Source: Blasia pusilla | Lineage: Eukaryota | DNA length: 64,000 nt | Reading direction: 5' to 3' | Assembly (NCBI GenBank): GCA_050084515.1 | Contig: CM114271.1 | Coordinates: forward strand, 18,104,001 to 18,168,000 | In this document: one piece after another, positions 11,160 to 56,019 of the stretch | Layout: each line of letters starts with the position of its first letter | Numbering within the stretch: the first letter of the stretch is position 1 | The notes under the pieces: generated by a model | The model's database searches: none | Seen by the model: only the letters and a program-made list of their open reading frames with translations | Told to the model about the DNA's origin: nothing | Made by a program: the position numbers and the translations under genes

Positions 11160-11184
11160 TCCTCAATATCCACTCTCATGTAGA

Positions 11185-16168: not shown

Positions 16169-16169
16169 T

Positions 16170-18556: not shown

Positions 18557-18628
18557 CTCTCAAGATTTTGTGCAAACATACTAGATCGCCAGATATAAAA
18601 TACTGGAAAACCTACTGCTCTAATACCA

Positions 18629-19041
18629 TGTGAGAAAACAAAAAGTGACGAAATCACTGAAATCTTTATAAAACTTATAGATACAAAGTGGCCTAGTCTG
18701 TCCATGCGCTGATAGAAGAGCTTCGATGGAACCTCAACGTGGAGATAACTCGCCATACGAGAATGCGCTACCGCTACGTCTCCCAACTATTTCACTACTC
18801 GGAAAACTAGGGTTTTTACCTAGTTTTCTTCATTTCTATTAATAAAAAAATCTTGCATCATGCACCCTAATGCAATATAGGGTTAGATAATCCTAGTAAC
18901 GCTACTCCGTAAATCACCTACGTCATATTACTATGACTTCTTCGACGTCTAAGTCGAAACCATCAATCTAGGCTTCTCCTCATACAAAGGGGTCCGATCA
19001 GATTAATGGTGCTCATAAAAGTGGATGTTGAGAATCCAACA
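18629..19041 (-). repeat. Copia 5' LTR
   Basis: Direct repeat of 10751-11159, adjacent to the PBS. Confidence 0.93.
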
Positions 19042-19056
19042 GCCTTGAGCGACATG

Positions 19057-20473
19057 TGTCATGCCAAGAGCTTCTCTTTTCGAGCAAAGGCATACCTTAT
19101 AGTTGCGGAAATCGTTGATGCAAGATGAATTCTCTAGTAAGTTTTCGTATTATGTATCAAATCACTATCTACACTCTATGTTCTCTTACAATGAGAATCA
19201 CAAACGATTTTGTCAATTGCAAGATTATCACTTCTTTATAATACCAAACTCCGAAATTCTTGACTATCAAATTTGTATGAACTACTTGGCGTTTGTACAT
19301 AAAGAAAATGTCATAACTTATATCAAATGTAACTTAAGGAGGCATGTTTATATTTATAGGCTGCTAGAGAAGGACAAACAAAATACAATCGTAATTCCTT
19401 ACGAAAGTGATAATAAAAATATCATTGGAGTTGGTGGTTGCATAACTTGGTTTATGAATATCTTTCCAAAGTGATAGACTAGATAATGAGTAAGCCAATG
19501 CATATTTACAAAGATAATCTTTGGGTGATATAGATTAATAAAAAGGAATTCGGATACCACTCACGTTATCTCATCGAGAGCTTTCTTCAAGTAAAAATAT
19601 ACCTTCTCGTTGTAATAGCCATTGAAGCAAAATTGAGTTTTATGATAAGTTTCAAGTGTATATTTGTCACAAACGGTAGTGTTGAGGCGATCATTTTTCA
19701 TAATTTTTAATCAATACCATAAAGCATGATCTTGTTACTATAAAGTATACCATGAAATATACCATAAAGTATATAATCCATCCTCATTAGAAAAGTAACA
19801 AGACCAAATCCATCCATTATCCATAAAATAACAAAGTGAACTTTTCTAAGATAAAAGTCTCTCCAAATAATCATCTCCACACATATTTGATCTTCAAAAC
19901 TTTCAAAGAATAGATCATAACTAATTCACTCTACCAAGAAGGATAATTCACACTAAAAGGACAAGCAAACAAGCCCAATGTCATACACTCAAGAGTGAAA
20001 AGCTAAAAACAAATTCAAGAAATGAATTTCAGGTGATGAATCCTTGAAGGTCCTTGCTCTTTATATACTCACAAGGGATCCTCAAGGATACAAAATAAGT
20101 CTAATCTTATTTTGTGCTATATGACTTCCTCTAAAGGTTTAGCCAATTCCATTTTGAGACAAGTAGATTAACTCTTATCTCTTTCTAAAATATCCTCATA
20201 AATCCACTTCATATCCTCCCAACTATCATAGCCATCAACCAATAATATTCTAGCTTTATTTTCATTAATACACTAATTCACTACTTTACTTTTATGTTTC
20301 CAATATCGCATTTATCAACTTTCTTTTTTATAATTGGACACATACAAATAAGGCATGATTAAAAGGTTTGAACATGGTTTTTTTTCCTAAAGTTTTCACT
20401 CAATACTTATGTAAGCTCTCTCTAACACTAATAAGAGTGAATTATATATTTTAGATTATTTTACTCCACGACA
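19057..20473 (-). repeat. Decayed LTR of Gypsy family X (ORF-bearing LTR)
   Basis: TGTCATGCC...CCACGACA termini; collinear with 33130-34411; decayed ORF-X (KIIFVNMHWLTHYLVYHFGKIFINQVMQPPTP) at ~19165-19570. Confidence 0.75.
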
Positions 20474-21520
20474 ATGGCACAAAAATTGGCAACTCGTAGT
20501 ATCTACGACATAGTATTTGATCCCTAACAAATGACTACTAGTCTTTAAGCATCATAGAATAAGAATGAGAGCTCAAATCCATCAATCTAAAAATCACCTC
20601 GTATTGATGGATGACCAACTCTCACTTGGTTAGTACACGGTGGTAAATGATGAGAAGGGTGCACTTCTCATGTCAAAATAACATGAAAATGGAAAGGGAG
20701 CGAACATAACTTTTGGTATCACAACCTTGTGAGCTTATATTTCAAATTGGAACTCTAATTTGTTACAAGTGGCGATGTTGATCCTCCAAAGGTCCCAAAT
20801 TCATCGAAGAATTGACAAATTTTTGCAATTGTTTTTTCCATACTAACTCAAACCATTGATCTAGTGCTTTTAAGAGCATTCTCATAAGCTCTTAAGCAGT
20901 GGATATAATCCTCAATCTATAAATTAGTGAACACATTGACAACCCTTTTTCGATAATTATCGTAATGTGGAATTCACTCATTATAAAATAGATCAAAATT
21001 CTTGTCCAACACACAAAGAAGACTCTCTATGGCTCTCATGTATACTTTATATTCTCTCTTGTTAAACCAAAGCTACTATGGGATTATTTAGAAGACAAGG
21101 AGCACCATAGCTCCTCCGCCTCATACATAAGAGGATCAACAACCAAAGAATAAACTCTCAAAGCTTACTCTCCTTGAAATATACCATCTTTCCCATATTC
21201 TTCCTTTGATCTTCCATAAAGTCTCTCCCAAAGTCATCCCTTTAGTTCTCTTCAAAGTCTTTCCCTTTATGATTTATGGACTAAAGATTTGTGCACCAAG
21301 GTCACTAATTAATCATAATCCTAAAATAATGGCTAAGGAACCACCATTCACACATAGAATTTCAAAGCTCACATAATTAGGGAGCTTATTTGGAATAGGA
21401 AGTTTCTCAAATAGCTTCCAAATAGATCTACATAAAAGGAGAATCTAGTATAATAGATTACCCTACTTAATAGCAAGTAATCAATGATATATTGAACGCC
21501 GCCTCTTATATATACTAAAG

Positions 21521-22911
21521 TGTCGCACAAAAGCTTATCGTTACACTATAAAAGACTTGATAGGGATGACAAATGGTTATGGTGAGACAATTATTTATTT
21601 GCAGCAAAAAACCCCAATTTTCTTAACTATAAAGTCTCTATAATATCTGTTTGTTTGTACACTAAGAAGATTATACAATTGGTATGAAGACCTAATCGAG
21701 CAGGTATGCTTGCACCCATAAGTTACTAAACGAGAACATATAAAGTGTAATCCCAAGTCCTTCTATAAGTGACAATTAGAGGTACCTCAAAATTTGGTGA
21801 TTGCATGACTTGCTTCATAAATGTGTCTTTGGAATTATGGCCTTGATAGTGAATACACTAATGATTATTTACGAAGAGGATCTTTATATATATAGTACAA
21901 GTTTTTGAAAGGAAAATCAAATACCACGCGCGGTCCATCTTTGTTTATATTTGACAAACATCTTCTATTCCCTTATCTTTTCCTACACAATTTAAAGTCA
22001 TAGATAACCACTACACATATTCTCTTAAACTTATGAATAATAAGTTCCCAAAATTTAATCTACACTCATCAATTTCGAAAGCTCATTCGAAAATGAATCA
22101 TAATTGAGTTATTTTCCCAAGAAGGATAATCAACTTTCATTAAAAGAGTAACCAATATCTCAAGAAATACAAATATAACTCTTTTACGAGAATAAATCTC
22201 TCCAAAATATTCAAATCCAAACTCATCAAACCCTCAAATTTCTCAAGGATGGATGATGGTCAAATTATTCTCTTAAGAGTGATGATCCATTTTCGATAGG
22301 AAAGAAACCAAGTCCAATATTAGTATCCCAAGAATGACAAAAATAACTTGAGAAAATGAAATTTAAGAAAGTGAACGCTTGAATGTCCCTCCTATTTATA
22401 AACTCATGCGGTATCCAAAAGAGTATAAAGTAGGCTAATTTTATCTTGTATCAAATGATTTTCTCTTAAGGCTTAGCCAATCCTTTTTGGACACTAGTAA
22501 ATTAATTTGTATCTCTTTCTAAAATATCTCCATAAAACCATCTTACATCTCTTAACTATCCCAATTATTCTAGTCTCGACTTCTTTATCAATCATGATAA
22601 CTTTAACTTTATTATCATTAATATATCGATCCAATATCTTACTTGAATTTTTCCATGTTATAGTTATGATTTCCTTTTATAGAGTTGGATCTACATAAAT
22701 GAAGTAAATACCAATCCACTACTTTATTTTTCTACTTTTCATGGCTCATTTGTGACATCTTTTCTTGTAATTGGATTTAAATAAATAATCTATTATTACG
22801 AGGTTCAAACATGGAATTTTAAAAAAATTAATCACTTAATATTTATATAAATTATTTCTAACATTCATAAGAAGTAAATATATATATGTCGAATCATTAT
22901 ATTATACGATA
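21521..22911 (-). repeat. Highly decayed family-X LTR
   Basis: TGTCGCAC...TATACGATA termini; shared blocks GGCTTAGCCAAT and CAAGAAGGATAAT. Confidence 0.6.
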
Positions 22912-26269: not shown

Positions 26270-28131
26270 GTGTAGATAGAGGTGAGTTGAATGCGGAAGA
26301 AGCACTAGAGTTCTTTAAGAAGTATAGAGTTCAGTTGAGACTAACAACCTCCATGAATCCGGAGGCAAACGACAAGAGTGAAAGGGGACATCTGTCAATC
26401 ATTCAAGCATTGGTAAAGACGTGTGTAGATCGTTATGTTGATTGGCCTATATTGCTTCCATTTGCTTTATGGGTAGATAGAACCACTCACAACACCGTTA
26501 CAAGGTTCATGCCTATAGAGTTGATGACATGTCAAAAGCCGATAATGCATGTAGAAGGAGATATTCCCACTTGGATGGGTTTGGCGTGGGAGGACGGACT
26601 CGAAATGGAAGAGCTCATAGCACTTAGAATGCAACAACTATAGCGGCTTGCAAAAGATATTGCACAAGCATTAGTCGAAATGAAGGAAGCAAGGTTGAAA
26701 AAAAAGGGGAGCTTCGACGAAATTCATCGACTCCGGAAGGAGCATATAAGAGAATGAGGTTAGGTCTTGATGCGCGATAACAACTCCGACAACCAATATA
26801 GTATATTTAAAAAAAATTCACGTCGTTGGTTTTATGCATATATTTTAGTATTTATTTTTATAATGCGAACTTATAAACTATGAGAGCTACATGGCAGAAT
26901 TCTCAAGTTGCCCATTGCGGGAAAAAGGGTCAAGATTTTCCGTAGACGTAAAGGATTTCTTTATTTTGACGAGTCAAATCAATTTATCTAAAGATGCAGC
27001 AAAAATAAGATTGAATAAGATAGCAATAAATTCTCATATTTTCGGCACATACCTGAGGATGTGCAGGTTTGGAGGGGATGAGCGTCGTATAGTAAAATCA
27101 TCCACTATGTAAAATTCTCTCTCATTAGGTATTAGTGAGAGTTTTATTAGTATTAAATAAATTAGTTTAGAAAAATAATTTTTTCATATTTAAACCTCTT
27201 TATGGTGCATCTTTTATTCGGGCCCAAATTTAAGAAAAGAGGTTATAAATAAAACATGGGATTATAAAAATAAAATAATGGGATTGATGGATTAATGAAA
27301 GAAAAATAACTAAATTTGGTTGGAATATAGGGTAGTTTGGATAGTTTAAATTATATGCAGTGAATAAACGAGCATATTTTAGAAGAGATAAAAAGTAATC
27401 TACTTGTGTATAAATATGATTGGCTAAGCCTTGAGAGGAAGCCATGTGGCACAAGATAAGATTAGCCCTATTTCATACTCTTGTGAATCCTTGCGAGTAA
27501 ATAAATAAAAGGGACTTTCAAGGATTAATCACCTTCTACTTCATTTCTTGTGTTCTCATGCTACTATTGAGTGGATGGCATTGGGGTCTACTTGTTCTTC
27601 TTATCAGATTGGATTATCCTTCTTAGGAGAGTAACTTGACCATGGTCTATTCTTCGAGAGGTTTATAGAGTGTGATATGTGTGGAGATGAGAGACTTGTC
27701 ATCTTAGGGGAGTTTATTCATACTAGAGATAGTGGATGGTTTTGGCTGGAATCTCCAACTTCGGTGATTCTTCCTATTGTCACGTATATGGGAGAACATG
27801 GGATTGTACGTTGTGTATTCTTATATAGCGATCCATGGATGTTCATAGGCTTGCTCGGGTAGGGTTTAACACTAGTTTTGTTATATTTCCTTTATACAAG
27901 CGTACAGTAATTTACAGGGACTTTACAATTAGGAATTTTTGGGTTCGATGTTATAAAGAAGTGATGGCCTCGATACTACCCTTCATGATTTTTGTCATTA
28001 GAGAATGGAGGATTTATATAATAATTCTGTATTGAAAAAGAGAACATTTTTATAGACTTCACCTTGCATCAACCACGTCTACCGTAGTTAGAAGGTTCGT
28101 CCTTACTCGAAGAAAAGCTCTCAATAGGACA
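26270..28131 (+). mobile_element. 3' remnant of a family-X Gypsy: integrase + PPT + 3' LTR (27083-28131)
   Basis: Integrase NPEANDKSERGH...WPILLPFALWVDRTT (26287-26643); PPT GGAGGGGATGAG at 27071-27082 directly before the LTR start (C/T)GTCGTATAGTAAAATC; LTR ends ...AATAGGACA. Confidence 0.85.
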
Positions 28132-31100
28132 ATAGGCATAATGAGACCCATCATCCATCACTTTGGTTTCCATTCTAGATGTTGTGATGTAGGATTGCCC
28201 AAGAATCACAAAATAAGCAACTCCATTTTGAACAAAGAAGTTTTGCTCAATCAACACATCTTCGATACAAGTTTTAACATATGAACAAGCGCCATAGAAT
28301 TCATCTTCCTGATTAGTGGCCACACGTAGTACTCATCCATATCGTGTATCAATTGGCTAGATTCCTTTGTCGTGTATACTTTCTGACATAATGTTGAATT
28401 ATGAACCATGACAGACGAGAACTAGAATTGACCCTAAGATAGAGCCTAGTCAAACTCCGACCTCCATCCTTGCACCTGCCCAATAGAATCAAGAATAGTG
28501 ACCACCATTGTGCTTTTCTTTAATTTTTTCTATTAAAGCTTCCCCTACTCTCGCCTCTTATGCTTGTAAGTCAAGCCTTTGTCCAAAAACTTGTCCAAGC
28601 TCTTCGCCTTCTCCTTCTGTAATGTGAGTATCCAATGCCCTAACCATCACCACATCTAGATCTGCAGTCATTTGCCTTTTTCTCTTGATCACCTCTATGA
28701 TCAATTCATGAAAGTCACGTTTGGATATCCCCAAGACTTCCCTCAAAGAAAACTCTATTTTTTGCATCCAAAATCTCTTCCTTAAGAATCTCTTTCAAAT
28801 TTATGCTTATCTCTATATCAGATTGCAGCTTCTATGTAGGAATCTTATCCTTGGTCTTATGAGGAGATCTCGATTCTTTCTCCTTTATCCTTGCTTCTTT
28901 GATATGAGAATGCATCATATATTCAGATGTGGAAGGCCCTTCTTCTCTTGATGGCTACACCTTCAGTTGCCCTTTCCTTCTCATGGTTCTCGCTCTTCTT
29001 AAAGCTTCCTCAAGATCAACACCATTATTATCGTGTCTCCTCTTCTCCTCCACAATTGCATCTTGCCAACTTACATGTTTATCTTGTGTTAGATATGCTT
29101 TAAGATATTCAGCTTCCACCGGATCATCCCATCTAGTGAGATGACAGATAATCTCTGCCTATAACTCTCGAGCTCACGGAACCACTCTAGAGTTACTCAA
29201 AGGTAGAATGTCCCTCGAGGCCTCTCCTCTTCCCTTTATATACTTAGAGATAGGTATGATGAAGACAAATTAGCTCTTCCTATCTGTATGTCATATGTCC
29301 TAGTCTCATAGCATGAGAGGATCGTCTTTGGACTTTAATGTCCCAACCTCATCTTCCTCAATCTCATCCTTATATTCCTTTTCACCAACCTATGGCCCCA
29401 CTCTCATCTTTATCCCATGTATCTTATTTTTTCTCTTTTTGGTTGATTTTTCCCACTTATGCGCTTCATGTCATAGATTCTAACTTAACTATGACTAACA
29501 AAAGATGGTTACAAACCTCCCCCCATTTAAGACACAACGTATTCATTGTGAGAACTTTTAAACTCTTACACTATTTATGGTGCGCTGGCCAAGTTGGCTT
29601 AGGGTTCCCATGTGGCCTCAAATAGTGGATATCCTTTCCATTGGACCAAGTATTCAACTCGTTGGTGATGAGCTCCTCAAGTGCATTTCTTCAAGATACG
29701 TTCACTTTAGAAAGACCATGATGGACAAAAATTGTCTCGATATAGATCCAAGCCAACTTTGGTGCAGTCACAATCTTCTTGGTTGGACAAAGATGGATAA
29801 TCTTGTTTAGTCTATCCATCAAGACTACAATATAATCATATATCGTGATCGTATATGGTAGCTCACAAAAAATATCCATAGTGACTTGTTCCCAATATTA
29901 TTGAGGTATTGGGATGGGCTGTAACAACCTTGTTGGTTTTGTGTTACTAGCCTTTAATTGTTAACAAATCCTACAACTCTTTACGTATACGTCAACATCT
30001 TGTCTCATTTTGGGCCAATAGTATGCACGTTGTAATCCTTCAAGGTTTCTTCAACTCCTATATGACCCGCAATGATTATGTCGTGAGCTTTAGACAATAC
30101 TTCAGTGCATAACTATGGATCTTATGGGATCCATACTTTACCTTTATGGAAAACGAATCCTTGAGCCTTGTGTATTTTGTTGGGCTGGATAGTAACTACA
30201 ATTTTTTCATCCTATTTTGTGGCTTTGGATAACTTTTTTCACCGACTAGAGTGAATATCCACTTCATACATATTATTCATATATGGTATACGAGTCAAGG
30301 CGTATGCCAACTACTTATTTTCTTCCACATAGATAATTTTCATCGTGAATTATTTTTGTCATTCTCCCCATCGAATTTGGTGTTTGGAAAGCTTTTTTTG
30401 GGACTCTAAGTAGACCAAGGGCTTGTGATCTGTCTCCACCACAAACTCCTTGTCGTCTAAGTAATATTTCCAATGCTTGGTTGGTAGCACAATAGCGAGT
30501 TCTTTTCGCTCAATTGTATAGTAGTTTTGCTTAATTGGCAATAACTTGCGAGAAAAAGAGGCAATAGGATGTCATCCATCCTCCCATTTTTGTTGTAGTA
30601 CTCCTCCAATGCTAGTACCTGAAGCATAGGGGCTTTGATCAAGACATCCTTTAATGATTGAAAAACAATCTCTTATGATGTGCCCCAATTCCATTTTTAT
30701 TCTTTCCCTAGTAGTCATCAAAGATCGTGCAATTTGAGCAAAACCTTTGACAAATCTTCCAATGAATCCTGTTAATCCTAGAAATCTTTTCAATTGAGTT
30801 TGATCCTCATGTGCATCCTATTTTTTGATCGCTTTTACCTTCTTACTCATCACTTAAATACCTTCTGCGCTTACTCAATGCCCTTGATAATCAACTTCTG
30901 TCTTACCGAACTCACATTTTGAAGCTTTAGCATACAACTCATTTTCTCTTATGATTTGAAGGATTTATTGTAGATGATTTATATGCTCATCAATGGTTTT
31001 ACTATAGACTAATATATCATCTAAGAAAACAATTATAGACTTATCTAAATATGGACGAAAGATATCAATCATTAGGCCCATAAAGGTTGGAGGTGCATGA

Positions 31101-31965
31101 GTAAGACCAAATGACATGACTAAGTATTCAAAGTGTTCATACCTAGTACGAAACGCAGTCTTGGGCACATCTTCATCTGCAATTTGAATTTGGTTATAGC
31201 CGCTTCTAAGGTCTAGTTTGGTGAAGTATTTTACTTATCGTAGTTGGTCAAACAAATCATTCATTCTTGATAATGGATATTTGTTTTTTAATGTTTGTTG
31301 ATTCAGTGCTCGATAGTCAATACAAAGTTGCATGCTTCCATCCTTATTTTTCACAAAAAAAGGAGAGGGGCTACATATGGCGAGACGCTTGGTTGGATGA
31401 AGAAGCCTTTTTGCAACATCTCCTCCACTTTGGCTTTGCATTCTTCTAATTCCCTTGGAGCTACGCGGTTAGGAGTCTTACATGATGGTGTGCTTCCTAG
31501 AAGGACCTCAATCTTGTGGTCTACCCTCTGTTTGGGTGGTAACCCTCATGGTAAATCATTTGGGAATACATATTTATATTCCTCCAATATTTCTCTCAAT
31601 TCGTCTAGTACCTCTTAATATTTTTTCAAACCACCAATATCTCTTATTAAACCTAGGAAACATACATCTTGAGGTTTGATGACGGTTTTTCCTATTACAT
31701 ATAGGGGTAGGATTTTAAGACGTGATCTAACTTTATATTCGTAAAGCTTCCACTTTCGGGTCTTCACAAATTTTTTTCTCCAATCTACTTGTGAATTTTA
31801 CTGTTCTATTCAAGGCATTTACGAGATAACATCATAACGTGTTAATCTAACGATTTTAATCTCCAACTCTACCTAACACTTTCCTATCCTCGACTCTGCC
31901 CTTCGAGGAAGCTTCTCGAACTTTTATGTTTGCCCATTTGGAAATTCTATCTCTTCTTTTTTATG

Positions 31966-32438
31966 TGTCGTGCGAATCCACATCGTCATACAACATACAT
32001 CGATGACATATCATATTCACAAACATACATAACATAAACGAGAGCATCCACAAACACAAGTGTACGACAACTGAAATCCGTGAAAGACCTACTGTCATAA
32101 AGCACGTATAGAATCACATACAATCGAGCCAAATCCACTCCACGATGGGAGAATCCAGGTCGAAGCTTGCGGGAATCACCATAGTGAAGAGCTCTACTCA
32201 CTACCAAGGCTAACTCCCAACGCAACAGGCTCAACTCAAAGAACTAACTATTTTTTGAGTGCACTCCACACTATATCCTCCAACCTGAGAGCGGGCCCTA
32301 TTGGAAAAGTCACCCTCAACGAGTAACCCCCAACCCTATGTATGAAACCGCATCTCTACCTAGACACTACGCCCCTACATAAGGTATGGCCTCTACTAGC
32401 ACACTATACTCTACGACATAATCCGTATGGTCATGACA
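31966..32438 (-). repeat. Solo LTR of the DNMT-carrying Gypsy family
   Basis: Reverse complement of 56385-56851 (TGTCATGACCATACGG...GGATTCGCACGACA); flanks TATG/TATC (4-bp TSD, 1 mismatch). Confidence 0.9.
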
Positions 32439-33129
32439 TATCCCTCTCTAAAGCTAAGCCCAATTTCATAGTTATGGCTCTTGAAATGAAGTTTTCTCTT
32501 GCCCTAGGATCAATCAACACTCTAACTTGGGTTCCTTATAATTCCCCATTTATTATAATGAGACGCGTTTATCCTAACTTCAAACTATTTACCTCCACAT
32601 GTTTGTGTCGACCCTCGTCTTTCCTCCTTTTGTTAGAACGAGTATATCCACGAGGCGCGATTAGTCGTGGTTGGCGTTTCCCTGAGATCCACCAAGCTTC
32701 TTTTTCATCTTTCTCAATATGTCTTCCTTCAAGATAATTAAGACGACAACGATATGGCTTATTTGCGAGCCTACGAAGACGATAATTCATGGCTATATCA
32801 CCATATCTACCATATTCAAAATATTAGAATGTATCTCTTCGGACTTTGAATTCTCTCCCTCCTCTAGGAATCCCAATCCCGTCGATTCGAGGAGCAATCC
32901 CTTGTATGTTGGAATTTGATCTCTCTCCATTGACATCCTTCCATTATACCTCGGCGGCGCATAACCATATCGTGCTTGAAGATTATCTAAGTGCATGGAT
33001 ATGGATCTGTAGTGGTTTTTCATGGAAGGAACCACCTCTCCTCCTCCTTCGTACATATTTTCCATACATTGGGCATATGCGATTGCTTCATTGATATCTT
33101 TTGGGTTTTCTGGAATCACCTCTTGACGT

Positions 33130-34411
33130 TGTCGTGTCGAGAGTCTTTCTTCAAGCAAGGGCGGGCCTTCTAGCTGCAGTAGATACGGTCGATGCAAGAT
33201 GAACTCTCTAAGAAGTTCTACTTTTTCAATACAAAATTATGATGTACACTCTCCATTCTCTCACGACAGGTATCACAAATGGAAGTGCCGAGGCGATCAC
33301 TTCTTCGTAACATCGGACCCAGAAATTCCTAACTATAAAATCCCTATAAACTATCTTACGCTTGTACACAAGGAAGATAGCACAACTAGTGTTAAACCCT
33401 ACTTGAGCAGGCCTATTGACATCCATGGGTCGCTCTATAAGGACATACAAAGTACAATCCCATGTCCTTCCATATGTGACGATAGGAAGAATCACCGGAG
33501 TTGGAGATTGCATGACCTAGTTCATGAACGCTTCCCCAAAGCGATAAACTAAATATTGATTGAACCAGTGTCTATCTACAAAGAGTATCTTGACATGGTA
33601 TGGATTGAGGAAAGGAAAGTCGGGTACAACTCGTGCTCCACCCCTATCCATGCTTGACAAACATTCTTTTCTCTCCTCAAGAATGGATTTTGGCGGAATT
33701 ATTCTCCCAAGAGGGATAATCCACTCTCATTGGGGAAGTAACAAGCCAAAACATTCACTATTTTAGTATGACTAAACTCCTCTAAGGTGACAAACCTCTC
33801 ATCTCCACACACACACACACACACCACACTCTAGAAACCTCTCGAAGAATAGACCATGATCAAGTTACTATCCCAAGAGGGGTAATCCACTCTCATTGGA
33901 AGAGCAATCAATCCCAAAACCATACACTCAAGAGAGACACGAGAGACTCAAGATGTGACCTTCAAGGGTTCATCATGAACCCTTGAAGGTCCCTCCTCTA
34001 TATACTCACAAGGAATCCACAAGAGTACAAAATAGAGCTTATCTTATCTTGTGCCACATGGCTTGCTCTCAAGGCTTAGCCAATCACATTTTGACACAAG
34101 TATATTTCCTCTTATCTCTTCCAAAATATCCTCTTTTACCCACTTAATATTTTCCAAATTACCCCAACTAACCTAGCCACCAACCAAGACTACTTTTGCT
34201 TTTCATTAAAACAACTACTTTACTTTTATAAAATCATCTTTTATTTATTACCTGCTTTTTCTAAAGTTGGGCCCGCATAAAAGAGGCACCATAAAGAGAT
34301 TTAAACATGGGGATTTCCTTTTCCTAAGCTAATTTACTTAATACTAATAAAACTCTATCTAACACTTAACGAGGAAGGAATTTATACACTGGCTGATTTT
34401 ACTATACGACA
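33130..34411 (-). repeat. Solo LTR of family X, best-preserved copy
   Basis: TGTCGTGTC...TATACGACA termini; flanks ACGT/ACGC; inserted in the chromovirus gag. Confidence 0.85.
33226..33651 (-). pseudogene. ORF-X: unknown 141-codon ORF inside the LTR (one CAG->TAG stop)
   Basis: MDRGGARVVPDFPFLNPYHVKILFVDRHWFNQYLVYRFGEAFMN*VMQSPTPVILPIVTYGRTWDCTLYVLIERPMDVNRPAQVGFNTSCAIFLVYKRKIVYRDFIVRNFWVRCYEEVIASALPFVIPVVREWRVYIIILY; conserved in other copies. Confidence 0.7.
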
Positions 34412-34967
34412 ACGCACCTTCTTATTCTAACCTTTATTGAATAAATCGAGAACTTCTGGCCGACTCATGCGTAGATTTGTATCTGCAAGTCATGAAACTC
34501 TTCGATGTTGTTCTCCACAATATCTTTCTATTTCAATTACCATAATTTCATTATAGCAGTGAGGATTGGATCCACAACTTGGAAATTTTACAGCAACCCT
34601 TGCTTCATTTCGCTCCATGTGATTTTTTGAGTTGTTTCAATCAAGGATCTCTCCCATCCTTGATACCATGTCAGTACTCTATGAGTTAATTAAGATCTTA
34701 AGAATATCCATGCAATATAATCATCAATGTTGAAAAGGATAAATGGATTTCCATCCGAGTGATCCAACCCTCTAATACCACCATGGCTTGACTTCCTTTG
34801 TACGGTTCAATATTGCATATCTTTAACATTTTCAATATCAATAAGGCTTGAGTAGTCATCTCCATCACAATTTGTGGTGAGTGAGCCTCTAATGCTCGTG
34901 CATTTAAGATCTCGTCATTCTCCCCAAAAGTCATTACACTCATGGTTTCCATCTCCATCCCACCTAT

Positions 34968-35152
<185 letters not shown>

Positions 35153-35312
35153 CTTACACTTATTTCTAACCAAAGCAACTTCTTACACTAATTCTTGGAC
35201 TTGGTTTTGACTTTGATCAAATGCAACTCTCAACTCTCTCAATTCACGAATCATATCCCTTAAAGTTTCTTCCATGATCGCTCCAACTTTCCCCTGACCC
35301 ATTACTACCATT

Positions 35313-35746
35313 CTAATATAAGATCAACATATACACATGCCAATTTTGCACAATAAGGACTACAAAAGGCAATGTTGACGTAATGACTTCATCATAATAC
35401 TCTTGGCCAAACTTCCTCACCATAAACTCTCTATATGCTATCTTAGGTTGACAACCCACATGGACTATACATTGATTGTTAAAAAATACTTGTGGAGGCC
35501 CATTCAAATCCATTCTCCATATCTCATCTAAAATAGTATATAAATAGTCCAATCCCACACACGATCATACGTAACTATAGGGAGGATCGTCGGGAAGCGA
35601 GACTCCATCACTTGCGTAATGAAAACTTCATCAAAATGATATACGAGGTATCTTGTGAACCAGTGTCTATCTACGTATAAGATTTTGATAGTGAATGCAT
35701 TAAGAAACAAAAAATTAGGAGCCACTCTTGCTCCCACTCCATCCAT
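35313..35746 (-). pseudogene. ORF-X homolog in the chromovirus leader (one frameshift near 35530)
   Basis: MDGVGARVAPNFLFLNAFTIKILYVDRHWFTRYLVYHFDEVFITQVMESRFPTILPIVTYDRVWDWTIYILF / ...KIAYREFMVRKFGQEYYDEVITSTLPFVVLIVQNWHVYMLILY aligns end-to-end with 33226-33651. Confidence 0.7.
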
Positions 35747-37200
35747 TACTTGCAAAACAACCCTTTCTCCATTCTCTACTTGCATCTCAATAACCATTTT
35801 CAACCTCTAGCAATCTATCTACTTTCCACAGTATACCATTACTTGGTCATCCCTTCAAGAGGGATAATCCACTCTCGTTGGAAGAGCAACATTGCTCTAA
35901 TATTATTGTAAGTCTCGAGCTCACGGAACCACTGTAGAGTTGCTTAAAGGGTGGAATGCCCCTCGATGCCTCTCCTCTTCCTTTGTATACTTATAGATAG
36001 GTACAATGAAGATAAATTAGCTCTTTACCTATCCTTATGCCACATGTCTTATTCTCATAGCATGAGAGGATCTCCTTGAGACTCTAATGTCCCAACCTCA
36101 TCCTTATCTTCCTTTTCACCAACCTATGACCCCACACTTATCTTTATCTCATGTATCTTTTTTTTTTTTCTTTTTTTGGTTGATTCTTTCCCATTTATGC
36201 ACGCTTTATGTCATAGATGTTAACTTAACTATGACTAACAAAGGATGGTTACACTGCCGTCGTAGCATCACTTCTTGAGGAAACAGTAATGATTCATTCT
36301 TAATTACAAACACAATAGGTCATTTTATCTCCACTACAAAGGTTTCAAAATTTAATACCGTAGTGGCAACTCCTACTTGACCTCTTAAGAAGCTCTTCAT
36401 TCCTCCTCTACCAAAGTTCGTACTCAATGATATACCTCTTTACATTGAATGAATCTTTTCATCTTTGAAATTTACAATTCCATTCCTAAAAGCTTTTGAT
36501 AACTCCTCGCATTTTCGACATTGATGCTCAATACTATCACCACATATGCCTCTCATCACAAAGTTCCTACTCGTTGAAGGAGCATGACCACTAGGATTCC
36601 GATCTAGTTTAAGCTCGACCATCTCTACTCTCAACTTTCTCAAACCTTTCACCAACTCATCTATGGCAGATTCTTCAAATTTTATCGAAACGGGCTTAGG
36701 CAAAGGAGTTGGAATTGATACCACTGACTTAAATATTACGATTTTATCTCTATCTCTACTTTGTTTTGTAAGGATAGCAATAGCTTATTCCACCTACTTC
36801 CAATTTGTGCTTACATCTCATTCTTTGGTCTTTTCCACCAACATTAGGAAGATCTTTGCCTCCAAATTCTTATCAGCCACCTCAAGGAATAGCTCAATTT
36901 TCCTCAAGTCAAGAATTGCCCTTTCGGAGGAAGATAACTGTAAAACCCACTTCTCAAACTCACGCAATAATTCATTAGGAGTCATTCCTCTTCTTAGACG
37001 TTACTGTATTCATTCTAGAAAACTCCACTTAGTCACCCGATCCACATCATCATTGAATAATTCTCCTTTCAACAATTGTTCATACTCTTCCCACGAATTT
37101 GGATTTTCAACTCTCACTTTTTTGACCTGACTAAGAATCTTTCGTAATACAACTAACTCAAAATTTCACACCATGTCACCTTCGAGCACACGGTTTACAT

Positions 37201-38289: not shown

Positions 38290-38568
38290 ACATACATCTC
38301 ACACAAGTACTCTCGAATATATTTGGTGATATTCCTCCCATCAAAGCTTCCCAACTTTTTTACAATCGCTTGGAGAGCTTTCGTTGATCTTTGCTCTCCC
38401 AAATCAACTCCTCTTTGTTGGCTTAACAATGTTGTCAAAATTTAGAGAAGATACTCAACTCCCTCGGTTTCCATTGATGGAGTACTACCAAAAGAACTCA
38501 TCTTGATAAGACTCGAACTTGCAAAACAAAATCTATTGCCTCAAAGATCTCTTAGTGGAAGCATTATT

Positions 38569-39837
38569 TGTCGCGTCAAAAGCTTTTCTTCGAGTAAGGT
38601 CAGACCTTCTAACTACGGTAGATGTGGTTGATGCAAGGTACACTCTATATGAAATTATCCTTTTTCAATACAAAATTATTATATAAACCTTATATTCTCT
38701 CACGACAAGAATCACAAATGGTAGTGCCAAGGCAATCACTTCTTCATAATATCGAACCCCAAAATTCAGAATTATGAATTATGAAATCCATATAAATTAT
38801 TTTCCGCTTATACACAAGAAAAATAGCATAAATTATGTTAAAACCTACTCGAGAAAGCCTATTAACATCCATGGATTGTAATATAAGAAGATACATCATA
38901 CAATCCATGTCCTTCCATACGTGACAATGTGAAGGATCAACGGAGCTGGAGATTTTGGGACCTAGTTCATGAATGCCTCCCCAAAGTTGGTAAACTAATA
39001 GAGGATAAACCAATGTCCATCTACGAAGAGATTCTTCAAGTGATACGAGTTAACAAAAGGAAAATCATGTACAATTCATGCTCCATCCATATCCATACTT
39101 GACAAATATTATATTCTCCTCAAGAATGGATTTTGGCGGAGTTGCTCTGCCAAGAGGGGTAACATTGGGAAAATAACCATCCCAAACCACATACTATTTC
39201 TAATATAACAAAACTCTCATAAGATGATAAGTCTCTCATCTCCGTACAAACCATATTTTTAAAAACTTCTCAAAGAATAATTCATGGTCAAATTACTCTC
39301 CTAAGAGGGGTAACCCATTCTCATTAGAAGAGCAAGCAAACCCCAATGCCATCCACTGAAGAGTGATACGAGAAACTCAAGAAATGAAATATAACGTGAT
39401 AAACCATTGAAGGGCCCTCCTCTTTATATACTCTAAAGGAATTTACAAGAGGGTTAATCTTATCTTATGCCTCATGACTTCCTCTCGAGGCTTAGCCAAT
39501 CATATTTTGGCATAAATAGATTACATGTTATCTTTTCTAAAATATCCTCATAAACTCACTTCATATCTTCCAAACTACCCCAACTATCCTAACCACCAAC
39601 CAAAAATATTTATGCTTTCTTTCATTAATGCACAAACCCCAATACTTTACTTTTATAATCCCATATCTCATTTATTACTTCTTTTTCTAAATTTGGGCCC
39701 GTATAAAAGAGGCACCATAAAAAGGTTTAAACATTAAAATTTTATTTTTCTAAGTTTATTTACTCGATGCTAATAAAACTCTCACTAACACTTAATGAGA
39801 GAGAGGTTTGCATAGTGGATGATTTTATTATGCGACA
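38569..39837 (-). repeat. 5' LTR of the family-X element, containing decayed ORF-X (~38665-39095)
   Basis: TGTCGCGTC...TATGCGACA termini; collinear with 33130-34411; followed on the minus strand by a decayed PBS-like TAATGCTTCCACTAAGAG and gag. Confidence 0.85.
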
Positions 39838-39989
39838 ACGTGGTTGCTCTTTCGACGAGAATGAGTTACTCTTCTTGCAAACATTACTTCTTCATGATCA
39901 ATTCTTGAAAAGTTTGAGAATTGGAAGAACGTGGAGTCGAGTAAGTTTCTTATATTTGTCGTATTAGAAAAGTTGTATTTGTCCTTCTT

Positions 39990-40716
39990 CAGATAATGGA
40001 AGCTATGGGATTTGGATTATCTCTCTTGAAAGATTAACTCAATCCTGATCCAATCTCGAGGAGCTTTACAGATTAATGAATGTAGACCAATTCTTAGAAA
40101 CTTATAGTTCATGAGTTTGAGATTATATATTAGCTCTTGCCTATGACTTTAAGTTATGTAGCAAGAGAGAGGAGGATTGAGGATGTTTCTCCAATAAGGA
40201 TAGAGATAAAGCGCGAGTGGTACTTGATTCTCTTTTCCTAAATCCATACAACAAAAATATCCTCTTCGTAGATAAGCAATATTTTTTTCGCTATGTATAT
40301 TATCACTTTGGAGAGATATTAATGAACCAATTCATACAATTTCCAACTCTGATGATACTTATGATTGTCACTTATGGAAGGACTTAGGATTTCACATCGT
40401 ATGTCCTCATTTTCAAACTTATGAATAGAAGCACATCTTCTCGAGTATATTTTAATTACTGAATATAAAAATTTCCGAGTGTATAATTTTAACGAGGTTT
40501 ATAAAGACTTCATAGTTAAGAAATTTTAAATTATGTAAAATAGAAAAAAAATTCCTTGACAAAACTATTTGTAATTCTTTTTGTTAGAGAATGGGGACTG
40601 CATGTTATGATTCTATACTAAATAGGGAAGAAAAATTGTAGATAAATTAATCTGTATGAACAACTGCTTCAACTAGAAGGTCCGTCCTTACTCGAAGAAA
40701 GACTTTCGATATAACA
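39990..40716 (+). repeat. Partial, decayed family-X LTR with ORF-X remnant
   Basis: ARVVLDSLFLNPY...ILFVDKQYFFRYVYYHFGE...IVTYGRT at ~40200-40620; ends CCTTACTCGAAGAAAG...GATATAACA. Confidence 0.7.
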
Positions 40717-46700: not shown

Positions 46701-49700
46701 AGAGAATATTTCTTGATTTGTATGAAGAATGTTTCCACCATTGTAATCAAAGCAATGTGAGCCAAGATCAATGGCGATTGCTTGCAATTCATATGAATGA
46801 AAAATACCAAGTGACCATACCATATGAGTCACAAATGTTAAGAAAAAAATTAGATGGGTTAGTAAAAAAGTATAAGAGTGAAAAAATGAAACAAGGTCAA
46901 ACCGGTACCGCACCAAGTGAGTTGGAATATTATGCTTAAATACATAGGTTTAGAGGTCCATTTCCAAAAGAATCATGAATACCTGGTGCATGTGATGGTG
47001 ATACTAACATCCAAGATGTCATGACCATACGGATTATGTCGTAGAGTATAGTGCTGGTAGAGGCCATTCCTTATGTAGGACCGTAGTGGCTTGGTAGAGA
47101 TGCGGTTCCATACATAGGGTTGGGGTTACTCACTTGGGGTGACTTTCCCAGTAGGGCCCGCTCTTAGGTTGGAGGATATAAGGTGGCTTGCCCTCAAAGA
47201 ACAGTCAGTTCTTTGAGTTGAGCCTGTTGCGTTGGGAGTTAGCCTTGGTAGTGAGTAGAGATCTTGGCTATGGTGTTTCCCGCAAGCTTCGACCTAGATT
47301 CTCCCATCGTGGAATGGGTTTGGCTCGATTGTATGTGATTGTAAACGTGTTTAATGCGATGAGGTCTTTCACGGATTTCACTCAAAGAACTCGGAGTAGA
47401 TCGATGGTAGCCGATTGTAGATCAAGAGATTTGGTTAGGGTTGATTGTGTACTCAACCGTGGATATTCGCGGCTTGTTGCCTATGTTGGAGGTGTGAATC
47501 AGGTGCGTGGTTGGTTGGGAAAGAAGCGCCTTGCTGAGAGCTTTCCAACGCGTTATAGATCGCGGATTTCGTCAAGGGAGTTGGAAGTTATCAAGCATTG
47601 AAGATTAGTTCGTGTTCGACAATTTTTACGATGTGGAGAGCTTGGAGTGCGGAAGCTCTGTTGAAGTTCATCCAGATCGGGTGAGAGGTTCCTATTGCTA
47701 CTTGTATTGTGATCTCATGTGAAGCTATCTCGCCGAGTGCGTGGAGCGTTATGGATTTCTGCGTGCATGAAACTTGGCGGAAGCGCTGCCGGATTTGCGG
47801 TTCTAGAGGTGTATGGACAGCAAGTTTGTATGATTTTTAGCTCGGAGTACGGAGCTCGGTTGTAGTTGATTTTTTGTGGGGAGATAGCTATGGTGGTCAA
47901 TTGAATTCTGATTGAAACAGATTTGATTTCGGTCACGTATTTGTGAAGAAATTTTTGATCGAAATTTCGCGGACTAGCTCAAGGTCTAGCTATGGTGGAC
48001 AGCGGATCGGAGGGGCTGGTTGGTTGGTGACTCGTTCATTGTTGGAGACACCTATCCCGTTAGGGGCGCCCTGGTTGGACCTCTCTCCATAGCGAAGCAT
48101 GGCGAAGCATGGCAAACGGGGCATGTCTCGAGCATTTTGAGGCTTCGAGGCAACTCGTGGTAGCTCGGGGCGAGTGGGCGTGAGAGGCGGAGTAAGGAGC
48201 AAGGAGCAAGGAGCAAGCAAGCAAGCTTGCTTGCTTGGGCGTGAGGCAATTTTTGCAGGATTTGGGATTTGAGTTTTGCATAACTGGTCACCTATCTTTG
48301 GGCTATTCTACCTGGAGGACGCTTAACTGCTGAGTTCTTAACTATGCTAGTGTACATACTGTTGTAGCTCATTTGGTGCTGTTCGGAGAGGTGTTAGGCA
48401 CTTTATGCATCTCAGGTTTTTGGTTGATGTACCTCTAGCGCATAGTACGGTGTAGCCTCTCCATGCAGGTGATATTTTCAGGTGTCTTTGCGAGTTCGAC
48501 CGGCACGTCATCGACCGTGGCGGAGTAGCTATTGCGTTAGAATTGTGTGGTGGGTTTTGTGGATTCGAGAGGGCACCACGTTTGGTGGATTGTGTTACCT
48601 TGATTTCCATTTGCGATTGGAGGGTTGTCGTTGGATTTCTGTGTTTGGATCCCCTCCATTGTGCTTTTGCTTGCGCCCATTGTTAGGGTTGACGCTGATT
48701 TCCATAGTAGTGTTACTCTGTGTGCTACTTGATAGTGAGGTGGAGTGATGACCGATGAGACCGTGGGAGTCTTCTTGTGGTGATGAGAGGTTAGGTTGCC
48801 TACACCCATAGCTAGTAGAGCTACAATAGTAGAGCGACATCGGCGTCACTTGGGTAATTTGGTGGTGGTGCGGCATCGGCGTTGGTCATCACGGAGTCGG
48901 GTGGTCGGTTTGGGACCGTGGTGCGGGACAAGTGTTGGTTTCACACGGAGTGGATTTAGGTATCGCTACCTTTTCCACTTTCGACGATTGATGAAGAGGA
49001 GGGCGAGGGTGTTCCAAACACCGAGTCTTCTACGTTGTTATCGAGTGTTGCGGCTCCATTGATTTGGGACATGGACGGTGGATATGGGGCCATGAAGGGC
49101 CCACGACAATACTCGGGTGTAGTGGGTACCATTGAGTTGGAGGACTTCATGCAGGAGTTTGATACGTGGTGTGATATGCAGATGTTTGAACGGCACGTTG
49201 TTTACACCCTTCTTGGCTTGGAAGGGGTTGTTTCAAAGACTTGGAAGGACCACCCATGGATGATTACCATGAGTTTAGGAAGGACCATGTTGTTGAGATT
49301 GAGGCATGGAGACAATATTGGTCTCAGGCTATGTGTCTATCACCCATGGTGGTATTGGTAGTAGTGCTCCTACTATGCCCGGCCGGCCCGACGTTGAGTG
49401 AGTGGTACGAGCACTGAGCCGGAGTGGGGGTACCGTGGAGGTACTAGTGGGGGTACTAGTGGAGGTACTAGTGCCCCACCATCATTTAGCCAGTTTTGCA
49501 GAGTTCTTCAAGAGGTTGAAGAAGAACTATCAAGGAGTGAAGACGGAGAAGTTGAGGAATCTTCAGGACTTTGAGCGAAAAGACTGGTGAGAGTCTTCGT
49601 GAGGCATACACGCGTATCGACGCTTGATTTCAGATTACCAGGGTGTGGACCGAGGATTAGGCAGCCGATCGATTTTGGTATGGGATCTTGGAGAGATTTG

Positions 49701-51726
49701 CGCCGTAGGGTGCGTGATGCTACTCTTATGAGTGATGATTCACCCACATTGACCCATGTGTTTGCTCTATCTCGAGAAGATTGAGCTTAACATGGTGAAG
49801 GAGAGAGTGGTGACATCCGCATTCAAGAGGGGATACAACTACTACTTCTCATGTTCACCGCCCACCTCACAGTCTCGTAGTAGTGGTGGTGGTAGTAGTA
49901 GTGGGAGTCGTGGGGGTACACGCGACCTCGTCAAGTCCTAGAGGGACATTTGTGTAGAGACCATTGCCTTCATTTGCTGCCCGCAGCAAGGACAATCATG
50001 TTGGACATGTGGAGGTGATCATGTTAGGAATTTTTGTCCCCAAGAGGATGGGGGCGGACTTTGGAGGATGGGCCTCGGTCGGCCCCAACTCGGTGTGATC
50101 ATTGTGGAGACTAGGTCATCCTCGAGAGCATTGCTTTGATCTTCATCCGAGTTGAGATCAGGCCGTGGCCGTGGTGGAGTAGCTCGAGAGGCCGAGGTGG
50201 TAGAGGTGGTAGAGGTGGACCAATGGTTAGAGAGCCTCACGGTGGCTACCCCTACCACTACGACAGAGTCGCACTATGGTCGCCAAAGATTGAGCAGTTG
50301 GAGCAGAGTTGGCTACTATGGTCGGTATCCAACATAGATCAGGAGTTCGGGAGCAGGGCTTCCACCTCTTATGGAGGGGATGATCTCTCTTATATGGCGA
50401 GTGCAAAGGGGTTGAGGCATCACCGAGCAGATCGAGAGAGGAGCCACTCGAGCGTCGAGCCACGTGGTGCTATGTGGAGTTGGACCCATAGAGGGGTGAG
50501 GTGGGGAGGCGAGCTAGGCTTCCCAGTCATTCTTGTTGTCCGAGGTGCTTAGGACTCCATCCATGGTTCCTACGCATCCTATTGAGCCAGCAGTGGGGAT
50601 CGGGCATCTACATCGCGTGTAGTAGACACGGATGCAGACTTCAAAGGCGATTGCGGATGGCAACCGGTGTTGGGATCCCCATTGTTTTCGGCCACTGAGG
50701 CGATGGCTTTAGGAGTTGACTTAGCTCTGTATTTCAGCTAGCGACCACATTGTGTGAACGTGGGGGTATTCTTGCTACACGTGTTGAGGTGGATGAGGAT
50801 GTTGCGGTGGAGCGACCCTCTATGTCGAGTAGCATTGAGTACCGGTGCTACTTGGCATGCAAAGCAGAGGCGAAGATGGATGCATTACGGCCGGCCAACC
50901 ATTGATCGTGAGAGGCTTACACTGGTGTATGTATGTTGGACAACCAGAGTGGGATCTTCCGATTGGTGAGTCCAACAGGACAGGTGTATAAACCAGATAG
51001 AGTCTTGTTAGACTCAGGTGCCCAACCTTTGATGTTGGGAAAGCGGCATGTATTGGTTTGGGTATTCGGAGGTCGAGCTTGAGCCTTGCCCATTCCGATT
51101 CAAACATCACTTGGAGGAGCCAATGATAGGTCTCAATTCATGACACGGGAAAAGTTTTTTGTACAGTTGAGACCAGATCATGCGACTGATAGCTCCCGGT
51201 TGGGAGTATCTGCGGTAGTCACATCGGCCGAGTCGTATGATGTACTAGTTGGAGGAGCGATTGTACCCGATGGGTTTTGGATGGATTACTGGATCGAGAC
51301 AGCGTCTTATAGACCAGGTTAGCGGCAAGACGGGATGGACGTATGAGCCAAGTTCGTGTGAGATTTATTTGGGGCTCGACCAGGAGGGTCTTCCCCAACA
51401 AGTGTTAGCATCTATGCCTGGTTTTAGTGGAGTAGTCACTTGGCCAGAGACTTTTTGAGGGTAATGTTTCGCTATGGATTCTCCTGCATGCATGAGGAGG
51501 TAGAGGAGGTCCCTATTTTTGCAGCAAATGGCATCCTCATCATTGGATGTGCCACTTTGGAGGAGTGCACTCAAAGCAGAGGGCGTCGCCTAGTGCAGAG
51601 GCTTGGTGTGAGGTCAGTTATACCTCACGAGGAAGAGGAGGCCCCACGGCGGACTCCTACGCCTGGTCCAGTTAGGTTATCCCTTTGGATACTACACCCA
51701 TTGTATGGCAAGTATCCGCCGGAGGG

Positions 51727-52670
51727 CATTTGTGTGTTAGATCTCTTTGGTGGGATTAGCACTGGTTTGGCAGATGTTGCAGCCGGTATTCTGTCTTGGA
51801 GATACGTGTATGTGGAGCGAGATGAGACGGTCCAGAGAGTCTCATCCCGACATATTGGTCAGTTGATGCGGAGATATCCTGAGTTGTTGTCGCCATCAGC
51901 TATTCGTGGGTACCAGCGTGCTTTACCATCACACATTGCATTGTTGGGGGCGCAGGACCTTGAGAGGGTTGGTCCTGTGGATTTGGTGATTGCTGGATGG
52001 CCATGTCAAGGTCATACACGTGCTGGTCGTGGTGAGGGATTACATGACCCTAGGTCTCGATTGTTTTGGGAGATGTTACGGGTGTTACGACATCTTCAGG
52101 TTCATCAGGCACGTGCTCTAGCTTACATTCTGGAGAATGTTCCATTGTTGGGTGACACTCGGACCCGGATGATGGCGAGTGTTCATGAGGTGCGGTCTTG
52201 GATTGGACCGGCGGTGTTGTTGGATGCAAAGGCGAGTTGGCTCAGCGTGCACATCGCTTGTGCTTGTGGTGGACAAACTTGTTGCTTAGGAGGTTCTCGT
52301 CGAGCATATGATGCAAAGGCAACGGGATCCTCGCCTTTACGGTGGATAGTATCTTGATCTTGGGCAACTTTCTCAAGTGGTGAGGGTTATTGATCGGTCA
52401 CCCATGGCGGTGGTGAACCGGTGGGCGACCTAGGATGGCGCTACCCACATTTGTGAGTTTTCCTCGTCACATGCCTAGGGAAGGGGGTCCGGGGCTTGTA
52501 TGGGATTCTCATGTGCGAAAGTTGGTGGAGCCTAACGCTCATGAGAGAGAGCGTGCGATGGGATTTGCTCTTGGTGTGACAAAGCGGTTGCTTCTAACCG
52601 AGGCTTCACGACGTCATGTGTTGGGTCATGCCATGGACCTGAATTGTTTGACTTGGATTTTGAGTCTTGG
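51727..52670 (+). CDS. C5 cytosine DNA methyltransferase domain (DNMT3-like motif layout) within the retroelement pol; frameshifted
   Basis: Motif I VLDLFGGISTG; II YVERD; IV DLVIAGWPCQG (catalytic PC); V-like PRSRLFWE; VI YILENV; VIII RAHRLCLWWTN (shifted frame ~52245); IX EPNAHERERAMGF; X RRHVLGHAMDL. Confidence 0.92.
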
Positions 52671-55600: not shown

Positions 55601-55879
55601 GGTATGCAACCATTCGGGTGGAGGTTATCGACCAGCGATTCGTAGGTTCCATGTGGGGGACTATGTCTATTTGCAGCAGATTGCCCCGACAACGTTGGAT
55701 GTGACGGCAGCCGCACTATTTTACGAGTGCGTGAGGTGTTAGCTTTTGGAGTTCTCATGTTGGAGGGTCGTGATGGAGTTGTTTGGAAGGACCATGTGCG
55801 TAATTATGCGCCATGTCATCTTCCAAATATGGATGGTATTATTGACCCAAGCTTAGCCATGATACGTGCTAGCTTGAGG

Positions 55880-56019
55880 TGCATGTTGTGTGGGTCTGCT
55901 GTAACGTAGCCCGTATGTTGGTGTGTGATCGGTGTTCTAGGGTTGGCACATGATGTGTTTGACTCCACGTTTGGATGTTGTTCCTACTTTGGAAGGTGGG
56001 TTTGTCTCGATGTACTTAG
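55880..56019 (+). CDS. PHD finger at the integrase C-terminus (frameshifted)
   Basis: CMLCGS...MLVCDRCSR(G)WHMMCLTPRLDVVP..RWVC.RCT* = C4HC3 with typical PHD residues. Confidence 0.85.

Follow-up and report, generated by a model that had tools for sequence, protein, structure and literature searches.

A pre-gag pair of small paralogous genes and adjoining cis segments, shared by a chromovirus and a putatively Phygy-like Ty3/gypsy family in Blasia pusilla

The window, i.e. the whole stretch of 64,000 nucleotides of Blasia pusilla DNA analyzed here, contains a decayed chromovirus, termed family C, that carries two short ORFs, a and b, between its PBS and gag. Its features all lie on the minus strand:

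29160-36253 (-): chromovirus family C element, decayed, with RT, RNase H, integrase, and chromodomain
35907-36253 (-): 5' LTR, with the TSD CTGCC common to the 3' LTR
35939-36076 (-), approximate: segment of the C LTR with a homologue in the LTR of a second family, X; contains the CATGTGGCAYAAG motif and a TATA-like box
35894-35905 (-): iMet-type PBS, degenerate in this copy, read from the sequence
35843-35892 (-): hairpin motif of ~45 nt directly after the PBS, one copy in C, two in the X LTR
35528-35746 (-): ORF a, 72 residues, intact, with an in-frame ATG 17 codons upstream in the window copy
35313-35513 (-): ORF b, 66 residues, intact, a paralogue of a
29514-35275 (-): gag, protease region, RT, RNase H, integrase, and chromodomain, from domain matches, decayed
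29160-29513 (-): 3' LTR, same TSD

The first-pass annotation had described a chromovirus at 29160-36253 with LTRs, a 5-bp TSD, a chromodomain, and an iMet PBS. The first three are borne out: the TSD CTGCC of the window copy is read directly, family C has TG..CA LTRs and a PPT, and domain analysis reports RVT_1, RNase H, H2C2, and, at the C-terminus of the integrase, a chromodomain (PF00385, E 1.8e-10, and 2.6e-13 in a second scan). The PBS assignment holds for the family, the canonical 12-mer being present in most of 30 sister loci, but the window copy departs from the iMet-type 12-mer at three positions. According to the available text of a plant survey, chromoviruses of the Tcn1 clade are self-priming in 83% of cases and use a tRNA-Met PBS in 5% (PMC6317226); the iMet-type PBS of family C would be the minority state there. 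The two LTRs of the window copy are 83% identical, and those of full-length C copies are 95.5-99.7% alike. Two solo LTRs and a (CA)n tract break up the coding region 29514-35275, the gag ATG is at 35275, 37 nt past the stop of b, and the whole copy sits inside the gag of an older family X element. The long (CA)n tract covers 34967-35142, within the start of C gag; sister copies exhibit a short repeat encoding ERERER.

Family X is represented in the window by the following features:

33130-34411 (-): solo X LTR inside C gag, flanked by the 4-bp TSD ACGT/ACGC
33978-34099 (-): segment of this LTR homologous to the C LTR (nhmmer E 2.1e-6)
33861-33910 (-): hairpin copy 1, motif match
33695-33744 (-): hairpin copy 2, motif match
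33433-33651 (-): X ORF a, broken in this copy by a premature stop at codon 45, terminal stop missing
33226-33426 (-): X ORF b, 66 residues, intact
38568-39840 (-): 5' LTR of the older X element hosting the C insertion, with decayed a/b at 38668-39090

The X LTR measures 1.28 kb, is bounded by TG..CA, and is flanked by a 4-bp NCGN duplication (flanks of 30 LTRs). A full-length copy (L062) comprises 8.5 kb, has LTRs 98.6% alike and the TSD ACGT/ACGT, and returns RT, RNase H, and integrase matches but no chromodomain in the four frames scanned. Its PBS is not of the iMet type and presumably resembles the end of tRNA-Thr. In the available part of PMC6317226, the Phygy clade is non-chromoviral, 7.7-10 kb long, and characterized by a 4-bp NCGN TSD and a tRNA-Trp (81%) or Thr (6%) PBS. 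By its TSD, its length of ~8.5 kb, and the chromodomain not being found, family X fits a Phygy-like assignment, from which it stands apart in having the a/b pair and two hairpins in its 1.28-kb LTR (PMC6317226). Both gag and pol of X differ from those of C, in agreement with the earlier statement on gag and protease. A first look at the genome returns 2833 X candidates. X insertions occur at NCGN, mostly within other GC-richer retroelements, and most of the 30 loci are solo LTRs; at one locus (L036), two X LTRs lie side by side. Older decayed X-type LTRs with a/b remnants are found in the window at 19054-20474, 21559-22655, 27084-28132, and 39893-40702; the three of them that were searched have best genome matches of ~66-75%.

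Several other elements share the window. An element at 10751-19045, which we take to be of Copia type from its gag sequence, contains a nested second chromovirus family at ~11300-16170, in which the cassette is absent. A further Gypsy family at 47017-56851 exhibits a C-5 cytosine DNA methylase-like segment (51428-52357, plus strand; PF00145, E 2.4e-9) upstream of the RT, and its relatives carry after the integrase a Cys/His tail that is presumably PHD-like. A host PPR-like gene and Harbinger/PIF-like transposase fragments were noted by eye at 6216-8138 (-) and 57384-58663 (-).

The segment 35313-35746 had first been read as a single ORF homologous from end to end to 33226-33651. The homology holds (tblastn E 3e-26 over the first 71 codons; 65% nucleotide identity over 363 nt), but the segment comprises two genes, a and b, that lie in different frames with a 14-nt spacer between the stop of a and the ATG of b. 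In 29 of 30 X LTR loci, an in-frame stop follows codon 72 and a new ATG appears 6 nt later; the window copy at 33226-33651, the only one of the 30 devoid of the a stop and also interrupted at codon 45, looks continuous because that stop is missing in this copy alone. A single 141-codon ORF, or recoding, was considered and rejected, because the spacer varies across lineages (6 nt in X, 14 nt in C, an ATGA overlap in a third lineage described below) and b retains its own ATG. Exact-length intact ORFs are found for a in 21/30 C and 24/30 X loci, and for b in 20/30 C and 27/30 X loci, while both decay in old copies. The two genes are paralogous, as indicated by HMM cross-hits (E 1e-7), hhalign (E 1e-4, probability 58), and BLASTP (21% identity). 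The module had also been placed right after the PBS: it does lie between PBS and gag, but the hairpin at 35843-35892 comes first, and a starts ~150 nt downstream.

When the C leader is compared with the genome, each of the 40 matches scored spans its full length, with 87-90% identity besides the self-match. Such a search favours cassette carriers, and the RT was used as an alternative anchor: among the best 80 RT matches, 62 have an a match upstream on the same strand. Of the 18 misses, 14 were examined. Ten of them retain a and/or b; one of these has lost the PBS too, through an internal deletion, and another is truncated. The other four stop short of the leader within 8 kb. None of the 14 exhibits an intact PBS-gag leader without the cassette. 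The module thus occupies the same site in sister copies, a point on which the first-pass annotation had hinged its claim, and the cassette is a fixed part of family C. The next-closest chromovirus family, with an RT 61-62% identical to that of C, has elements without a/b in 6/6 loci; its gag starts within ~150 nt of the PBS in the four loci where a PBS was found, and the sole a/b HMM matches at these loci fall on an adjoining X remnant.

Selection was estimated on intact ORFs only. Between C and X, a has a pS of 0.744 and a pN of 0.198 (bootstrap pN/pS 0.15-0.34), b a pS of 0.690 and a pN of 0.244 (0.22-0.46), and pS<=pN is never reached in codon bootstraps. Identities at the three codon positions are 0.75/0.83/0.44 for a and 0.71/0.82/0.42 for b; the divergence is concentrated at synonymous sites, as the Ka/Ks comparison proposed beforehand required for a selected module. 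The between-family omega values of 0.06 and 0.16 are rough because synonymous sites are near saturation, and the window pair alone gives dN/dS of 0.15 and 0.26. Four other reading frames return omega values of 1.0-3.4. In the antisense frame whose third positions coincide with those of the genes, omega is 0.3-0.45, but ~3 stops interrupt it. An antisense ORF that is open in many X LTRs was discarded as a candidate gene (omega ~1.1, no selection). Within families, omega amounts to 0.34-0.54, a value inflated because intact ORFs were chosen and reflecting post-insertion decay. Purifying selection is shown on both a and b.

ORF a is ~64-69% identical between C and X, against 29.6% for the RT. In the protein tree, C-a joins X-a (99/97), and C-b and X-b fall within the b clade (98/93); the pair was therefore transferred after the duplication. 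Regarding the incongruence between the ORF and RT trees suggested earlier, the distances are in favour, but a four-family RT test does not reject a C+X grouping (p-AU 0.43; support for C+sister 48/22, with a long X branch), and the incongruence hence rests on the distances and on the absence of the cassette from the sister chromovirus. Transfer from X to C would be the simpler reading, but the internal pre-gag position is also found in another lineage. That a and b belong to a selected, transferred, protein-coding cassette shared between lineages appears very probable. The original proposal of a selected module exchanged between lineages and kept upstream of gag in the sense orientation is thereby supported, with the amendment that it consists of two paralogous genes and of cis elements that include part of the LTR.

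These cis elements run against the statement that the LTRs of the two families are unrelated. A segment of ~135 nt (C LTR ~180-315, X LTR ~315-447) matches in 30/30 X LTRs, at nhmmer E-values from 8.5e-9 to 5.8e-6; with reversed sequences as control, the best E is 7.9. Four pairwise comparisons score 68-90, against maxima of 48-59 for dinucleotide shuffles. The CATGTGGCAYAAG motif occurs in 21/30 C and 27/30 X LTRs, and from its sequence the shared segment is probably a promoter piece. The 30-nt core of the hairpin is 85-88% identical between C and X while synonymous sites are saturated; its folding z-scores are -2.3 to -4.0, and covariation is not above that of shuffles (26-214 of 500), so that the motif may act as an RNA structure or as a DNA site. 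Rfam analysis of the C leader returns no match. Both families arrange these parts alike (promoter segment, hairpin, a, b, gag), except that in C the LTR end and PBS of the element itself intervene.

AlphaFold2 prediction of a from a 30-row alignment reaches a pLDDT of 83 and a pTM of 0.61 (a first model on 12 rows had a pLDDT of 52). The model comprises a strand (residues 18-25), two helices (27-37 and 40-48), and two further strands (53-60 and 64-71). Among 32 representatives, F38, G39, P52, P56, Y60, W64, and Y69 are conserved, the aromatic Y60, W64, and Y69 being located on strands, and position 27, at the start of helix 1, is basic in 97%. The a proteins are near neutral in charge, and their strands are hydrophobic up to the last C-terminal residue. 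Foldseek analysis against PDB and BFVD reports nothing at E<=0.001, the best VIA-align hit has a Z of 4.1 (rmsd 3.1, 53 aligned), and the best ESM Atlas scores (0.78 and 0.80) are uninformative. At E<=0.1, Pfam offers just two sub-threshold rows of a single member each, and the PDB searched by sequence gives no hit. The predicted beta-alpha-alpha-beta-beta arrangement, which lacks a clear structural match that would speak for nucleic-acid binding, is possibly a new fold, though a missing match does not by itself establish one; KH, B3, and ribbon-helix-helix were among the candidate folds considered.

The a profile collects 33 representatives at E<=0.001, and a deeper profile 77 proteins among 274 candidates, all named no further than "hypothetical". 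Among 8000 longer proteins scored, five match; one protein (P0021) is an a+b fusion, and a Marchantia polymorpha gene model has an a-type segment as its tail. In three of four metagenome loci, the fourth being a false hit, a tandem pair of 75 and 70 residues, overlapping at ATGA, lies 14-30 nt before a Retrotrans_gag ORF for which tblastn reports no relation to the gags of C, X, and the others compared. The a and b of this third lineage group together (96/93) and not with those of C and X, which suggests an independent duplication. The hairpin profile returns nothing at E<=1 in the three loci, and hairpin and proteins are therefore not obligate partners. Upstream of the third-lineage pair lies an ORF of ~250 residues (L119:330-1076, L120:1828-2634, L121:150-956), 64% identical among the three and without Pfam or PHROG match. 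Another family member (P0119) continues into an RNase H domain (PF13456), recalling the aRH upstream of gag described for moss Tat elements in the available part of PMC10508981, and gives a lead to a further lineage. When two distant homologues were searched in the genome from which the window comes, all 24 loci examined among the 150 + 150 matches listed were X LTRs, with no third family. A single-sequence homologue search gave no candidate, viral contigs and a first metagenome scan contained no family members, and PHROG 6160 matches one of 30 members.

Expression was assessed by mapping three RNA runs, from one study and with the same species label, on the X 5' LTR and gag. In 3/3 runs, a, b, PBS, and gag of X are covered continuously and mainly on one strand at a depth of ~20-210, the sense strand being assigned on the assumption of the usual library orientation; no splice joint is listed across a-b-PBS-gag, and most reads preserve the a frame where the X reference copy is frameshifted. 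Depth is low over X LTR ~345-620, a stretch that includes a skipped repeat. RNA ends form pile-ups at L062:1568 and 1591, i.e. X LTR ~250-273; the TATA-like box shared with C, at 408, is downstream of them, and a second TATAAA lies at 182. On either reading of the start, a and b are 3' of these pile-ups, in U5 and ahead of gag. Reads that run from the end of the X LTR into the start of the LTR, with an extra AA (L062:2598 to 1319), resemble a two-LTR circle or tandem-LTR junction, which suggests recent X activity. For C, 18-67 reads per run link the LTR end and PBS to the shared hairpin and continue into the leader, so that the C leader is transcribed; a search of indexed RNA datasets with it lists none. 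This leader has numerous out-of-frame ATGs ahead of gag, which would argue against leaky scanning; taken with the short spacers and the ATGA overlap of the third lineage, they would favour reinitiation.

Taken together, the promoter segment, the hairpin, and ORFs a and b would form a cassette that precedes gag, in sense orientation, on the RNA of two Ty3/gypsy lineages only distantly related: in the Phygy-like family it is housed in the long LTR, in a single chromovirus family it follows the PBS. Recombination would have carried it from one lineage to the other, the likeliest route being a template switch between RNAs packaged together, and synonymous sites would since have had time to saturate. 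Both a and b would be translated, b and gag probably by termination-reinitiation, and the small domains may pair through their hydrophobic sheets into an a/b oligomer. This oligomer would then regulate transcription, RNA fate, or gag translation of its own element via the co-inherited hairpin or promoter segment. We give a probability of roughly 0.4 to this reading of a and b as an oligomeric self-regulator acting through a cis block, like a small viral transactivator, which places it ahead of the five alternatives below, taken in descending order.

The closest contender, although unlikely, is that a and b are counter-defence proteins that suppress RNA silencing, DNA methylation, or another host restriction, with the hairpin and promoter as passengers. 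The conservation of a/b in at least three element lineages, one without the hairpin, speaks for it, as do the great abundance and the expression of X, and accessory ORFs of plant pararetroviruses that suppress defence provide a precedent in the available text of PMC5902531. It leaves unexplained why a non-coding hairpin is so well conserved between C and X, no likeness of a/b to any family or solved fold was found, and arms races are generally considered to seldom leave strong purifying selection.

Rather improbable is a mainly cis role, in which conserved-peptide uORFs throttle gag translation. The ORFs always lie just 5' of gag, with short spacers or an ATGA overlap, and no splice joint removes them from X RNA; against this, both proteins are conserved over their whole length, the model of a is confident and globular, and in X ~160 nt and the PBS separate the ORFs from gag. 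Slightly less plausible again are particle- or membrane-associated factors of cell-to-cell movement, like sORF2/FAST of the Drosophila MDG1 group, with which a and b share a hydrophobic composition and, judging from the accessible part of the preprint, the position, number, and size class of sORF1/sORF2 (bioRxiv 10.1101/2025.03.14.642691). The N-myristoylation motif MGxxxS/T is absent from 16/16 sequences, no 19-residue stretch exceeds a KD of 1.8 (maxima of 0.96-1.78, on predicted strands), and the model is a mixed alpha/beta domain rather than a single membrane helix. Very improbable is a poison-antidote pair favouring element-bearing cells or spores. In its favour, a and b are small, paralogous, and coupled, they reside on a selfish element, and the host is presumably haploid-dominant; against it, both ORFs decay freely in old copies. 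That C picked up a piece of an X LTR by chance, without function, a reading to which the frequent X/C nesting (in the window and at L076) and the decay reflected in the within-family omega might point, is largely refuted by exact-length intact ORFs in both families despite saturated synonymous sites, by the fixation of the cassette in C, and by homologues in other organisms.

If the self-regulator reading is true, LTR retrotransposons would possess accessory regulation like that of complex retroviruses. The shared cassette shows that a promoter piece, a hairpin, and accessory genes can travel together between deep Ty3/gypsy lineages. The family itself is unnamed, conserved, and foldable, located pre-gag, and selected in element families whose RTs are ~30% alike. 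Two proteins of ~70 residues and a 45-nt hairpin offer a small testable system for self-regulation, evasion of silencing, and gag translation behind long uORFs. In its broadest form, held with reserve, the proposal is that Ty3/gypsy elements of non-seed plants possess an undescribed pair of ~70-residue regulators which, jointly with the cis element belonging to it, works as a portable cassette for transactivation or anti-silencing and has been recombined among a chromovirus, Phygy, and at least one further lineage.

No description of such a cassette was found in the literature covered, which did not extend to subscription journals, Repbase entries, or bioRxiv supplements, and the available parts of PMC7466625 and PMC11899658 make no mention of pre-gag ORFs of this kind. 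In plant Ty3/gypsy elements, Ogre/Tat and other OTA members carry an extra eORF-5'F 5' of gag, and the accessible sections of that survey list no eORF for Phygy or Tcn1; since only ORFs of at least 250 codons were counted, ORFs of 66-75 codons like a and b fall below its threshold (PMC6317226). With the leader sORFs and TAV of caulimovirids, a and b share a polycistronic reverse-transcribing RNA and a structured leader, and the stop/start overlap of the third lineage resembles termination-reinitiation in caliciviruses and SART1, a mechanism described, in the part of PMC5902531 available, for non-LTR rather than LTR elements. No sequence link to any of the three systems was found. The retroviral Tat/TAR system pairs a small transactivator with a leader hairpin. 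By analogy only, a and b are likewise small proteins inherited along with a hairpin of the leader, itself preceded by a TATA-like box, although they lack an arginine-rich motif and no splicing is seen. The nearest parallel in organization comes from insect retrotransposons, in which small pre-gag accessory ORFs were recently shown to encode real proteins: as presented in the available part of the preprint, members of the MDG1 group (412, Mdg1, Stalker, Blood, Tabor) have an unspliced RNA on which a pair of short sense ORFs with low dN/dS precedes gag, sORF1 being a predicted helix-turn-helix, nuclear protein and sORF2 a transmembrane, FAST-like one (bioRxiv 10.1101/2025.03.14.642691). Like these, a and b are two short sense pre-gag ORFs under purifying selection and unspliced in X; they differ from sORF2/FAST in having neither the myristoylation motif nor, by hydropathy and model, a clear single transmembrane helix with a polybasic region behind it, and from the MDG1 pair as a whole in being paralogous, in their predicted alpha/beta structure, and in being common to different lineages together with cis elements.
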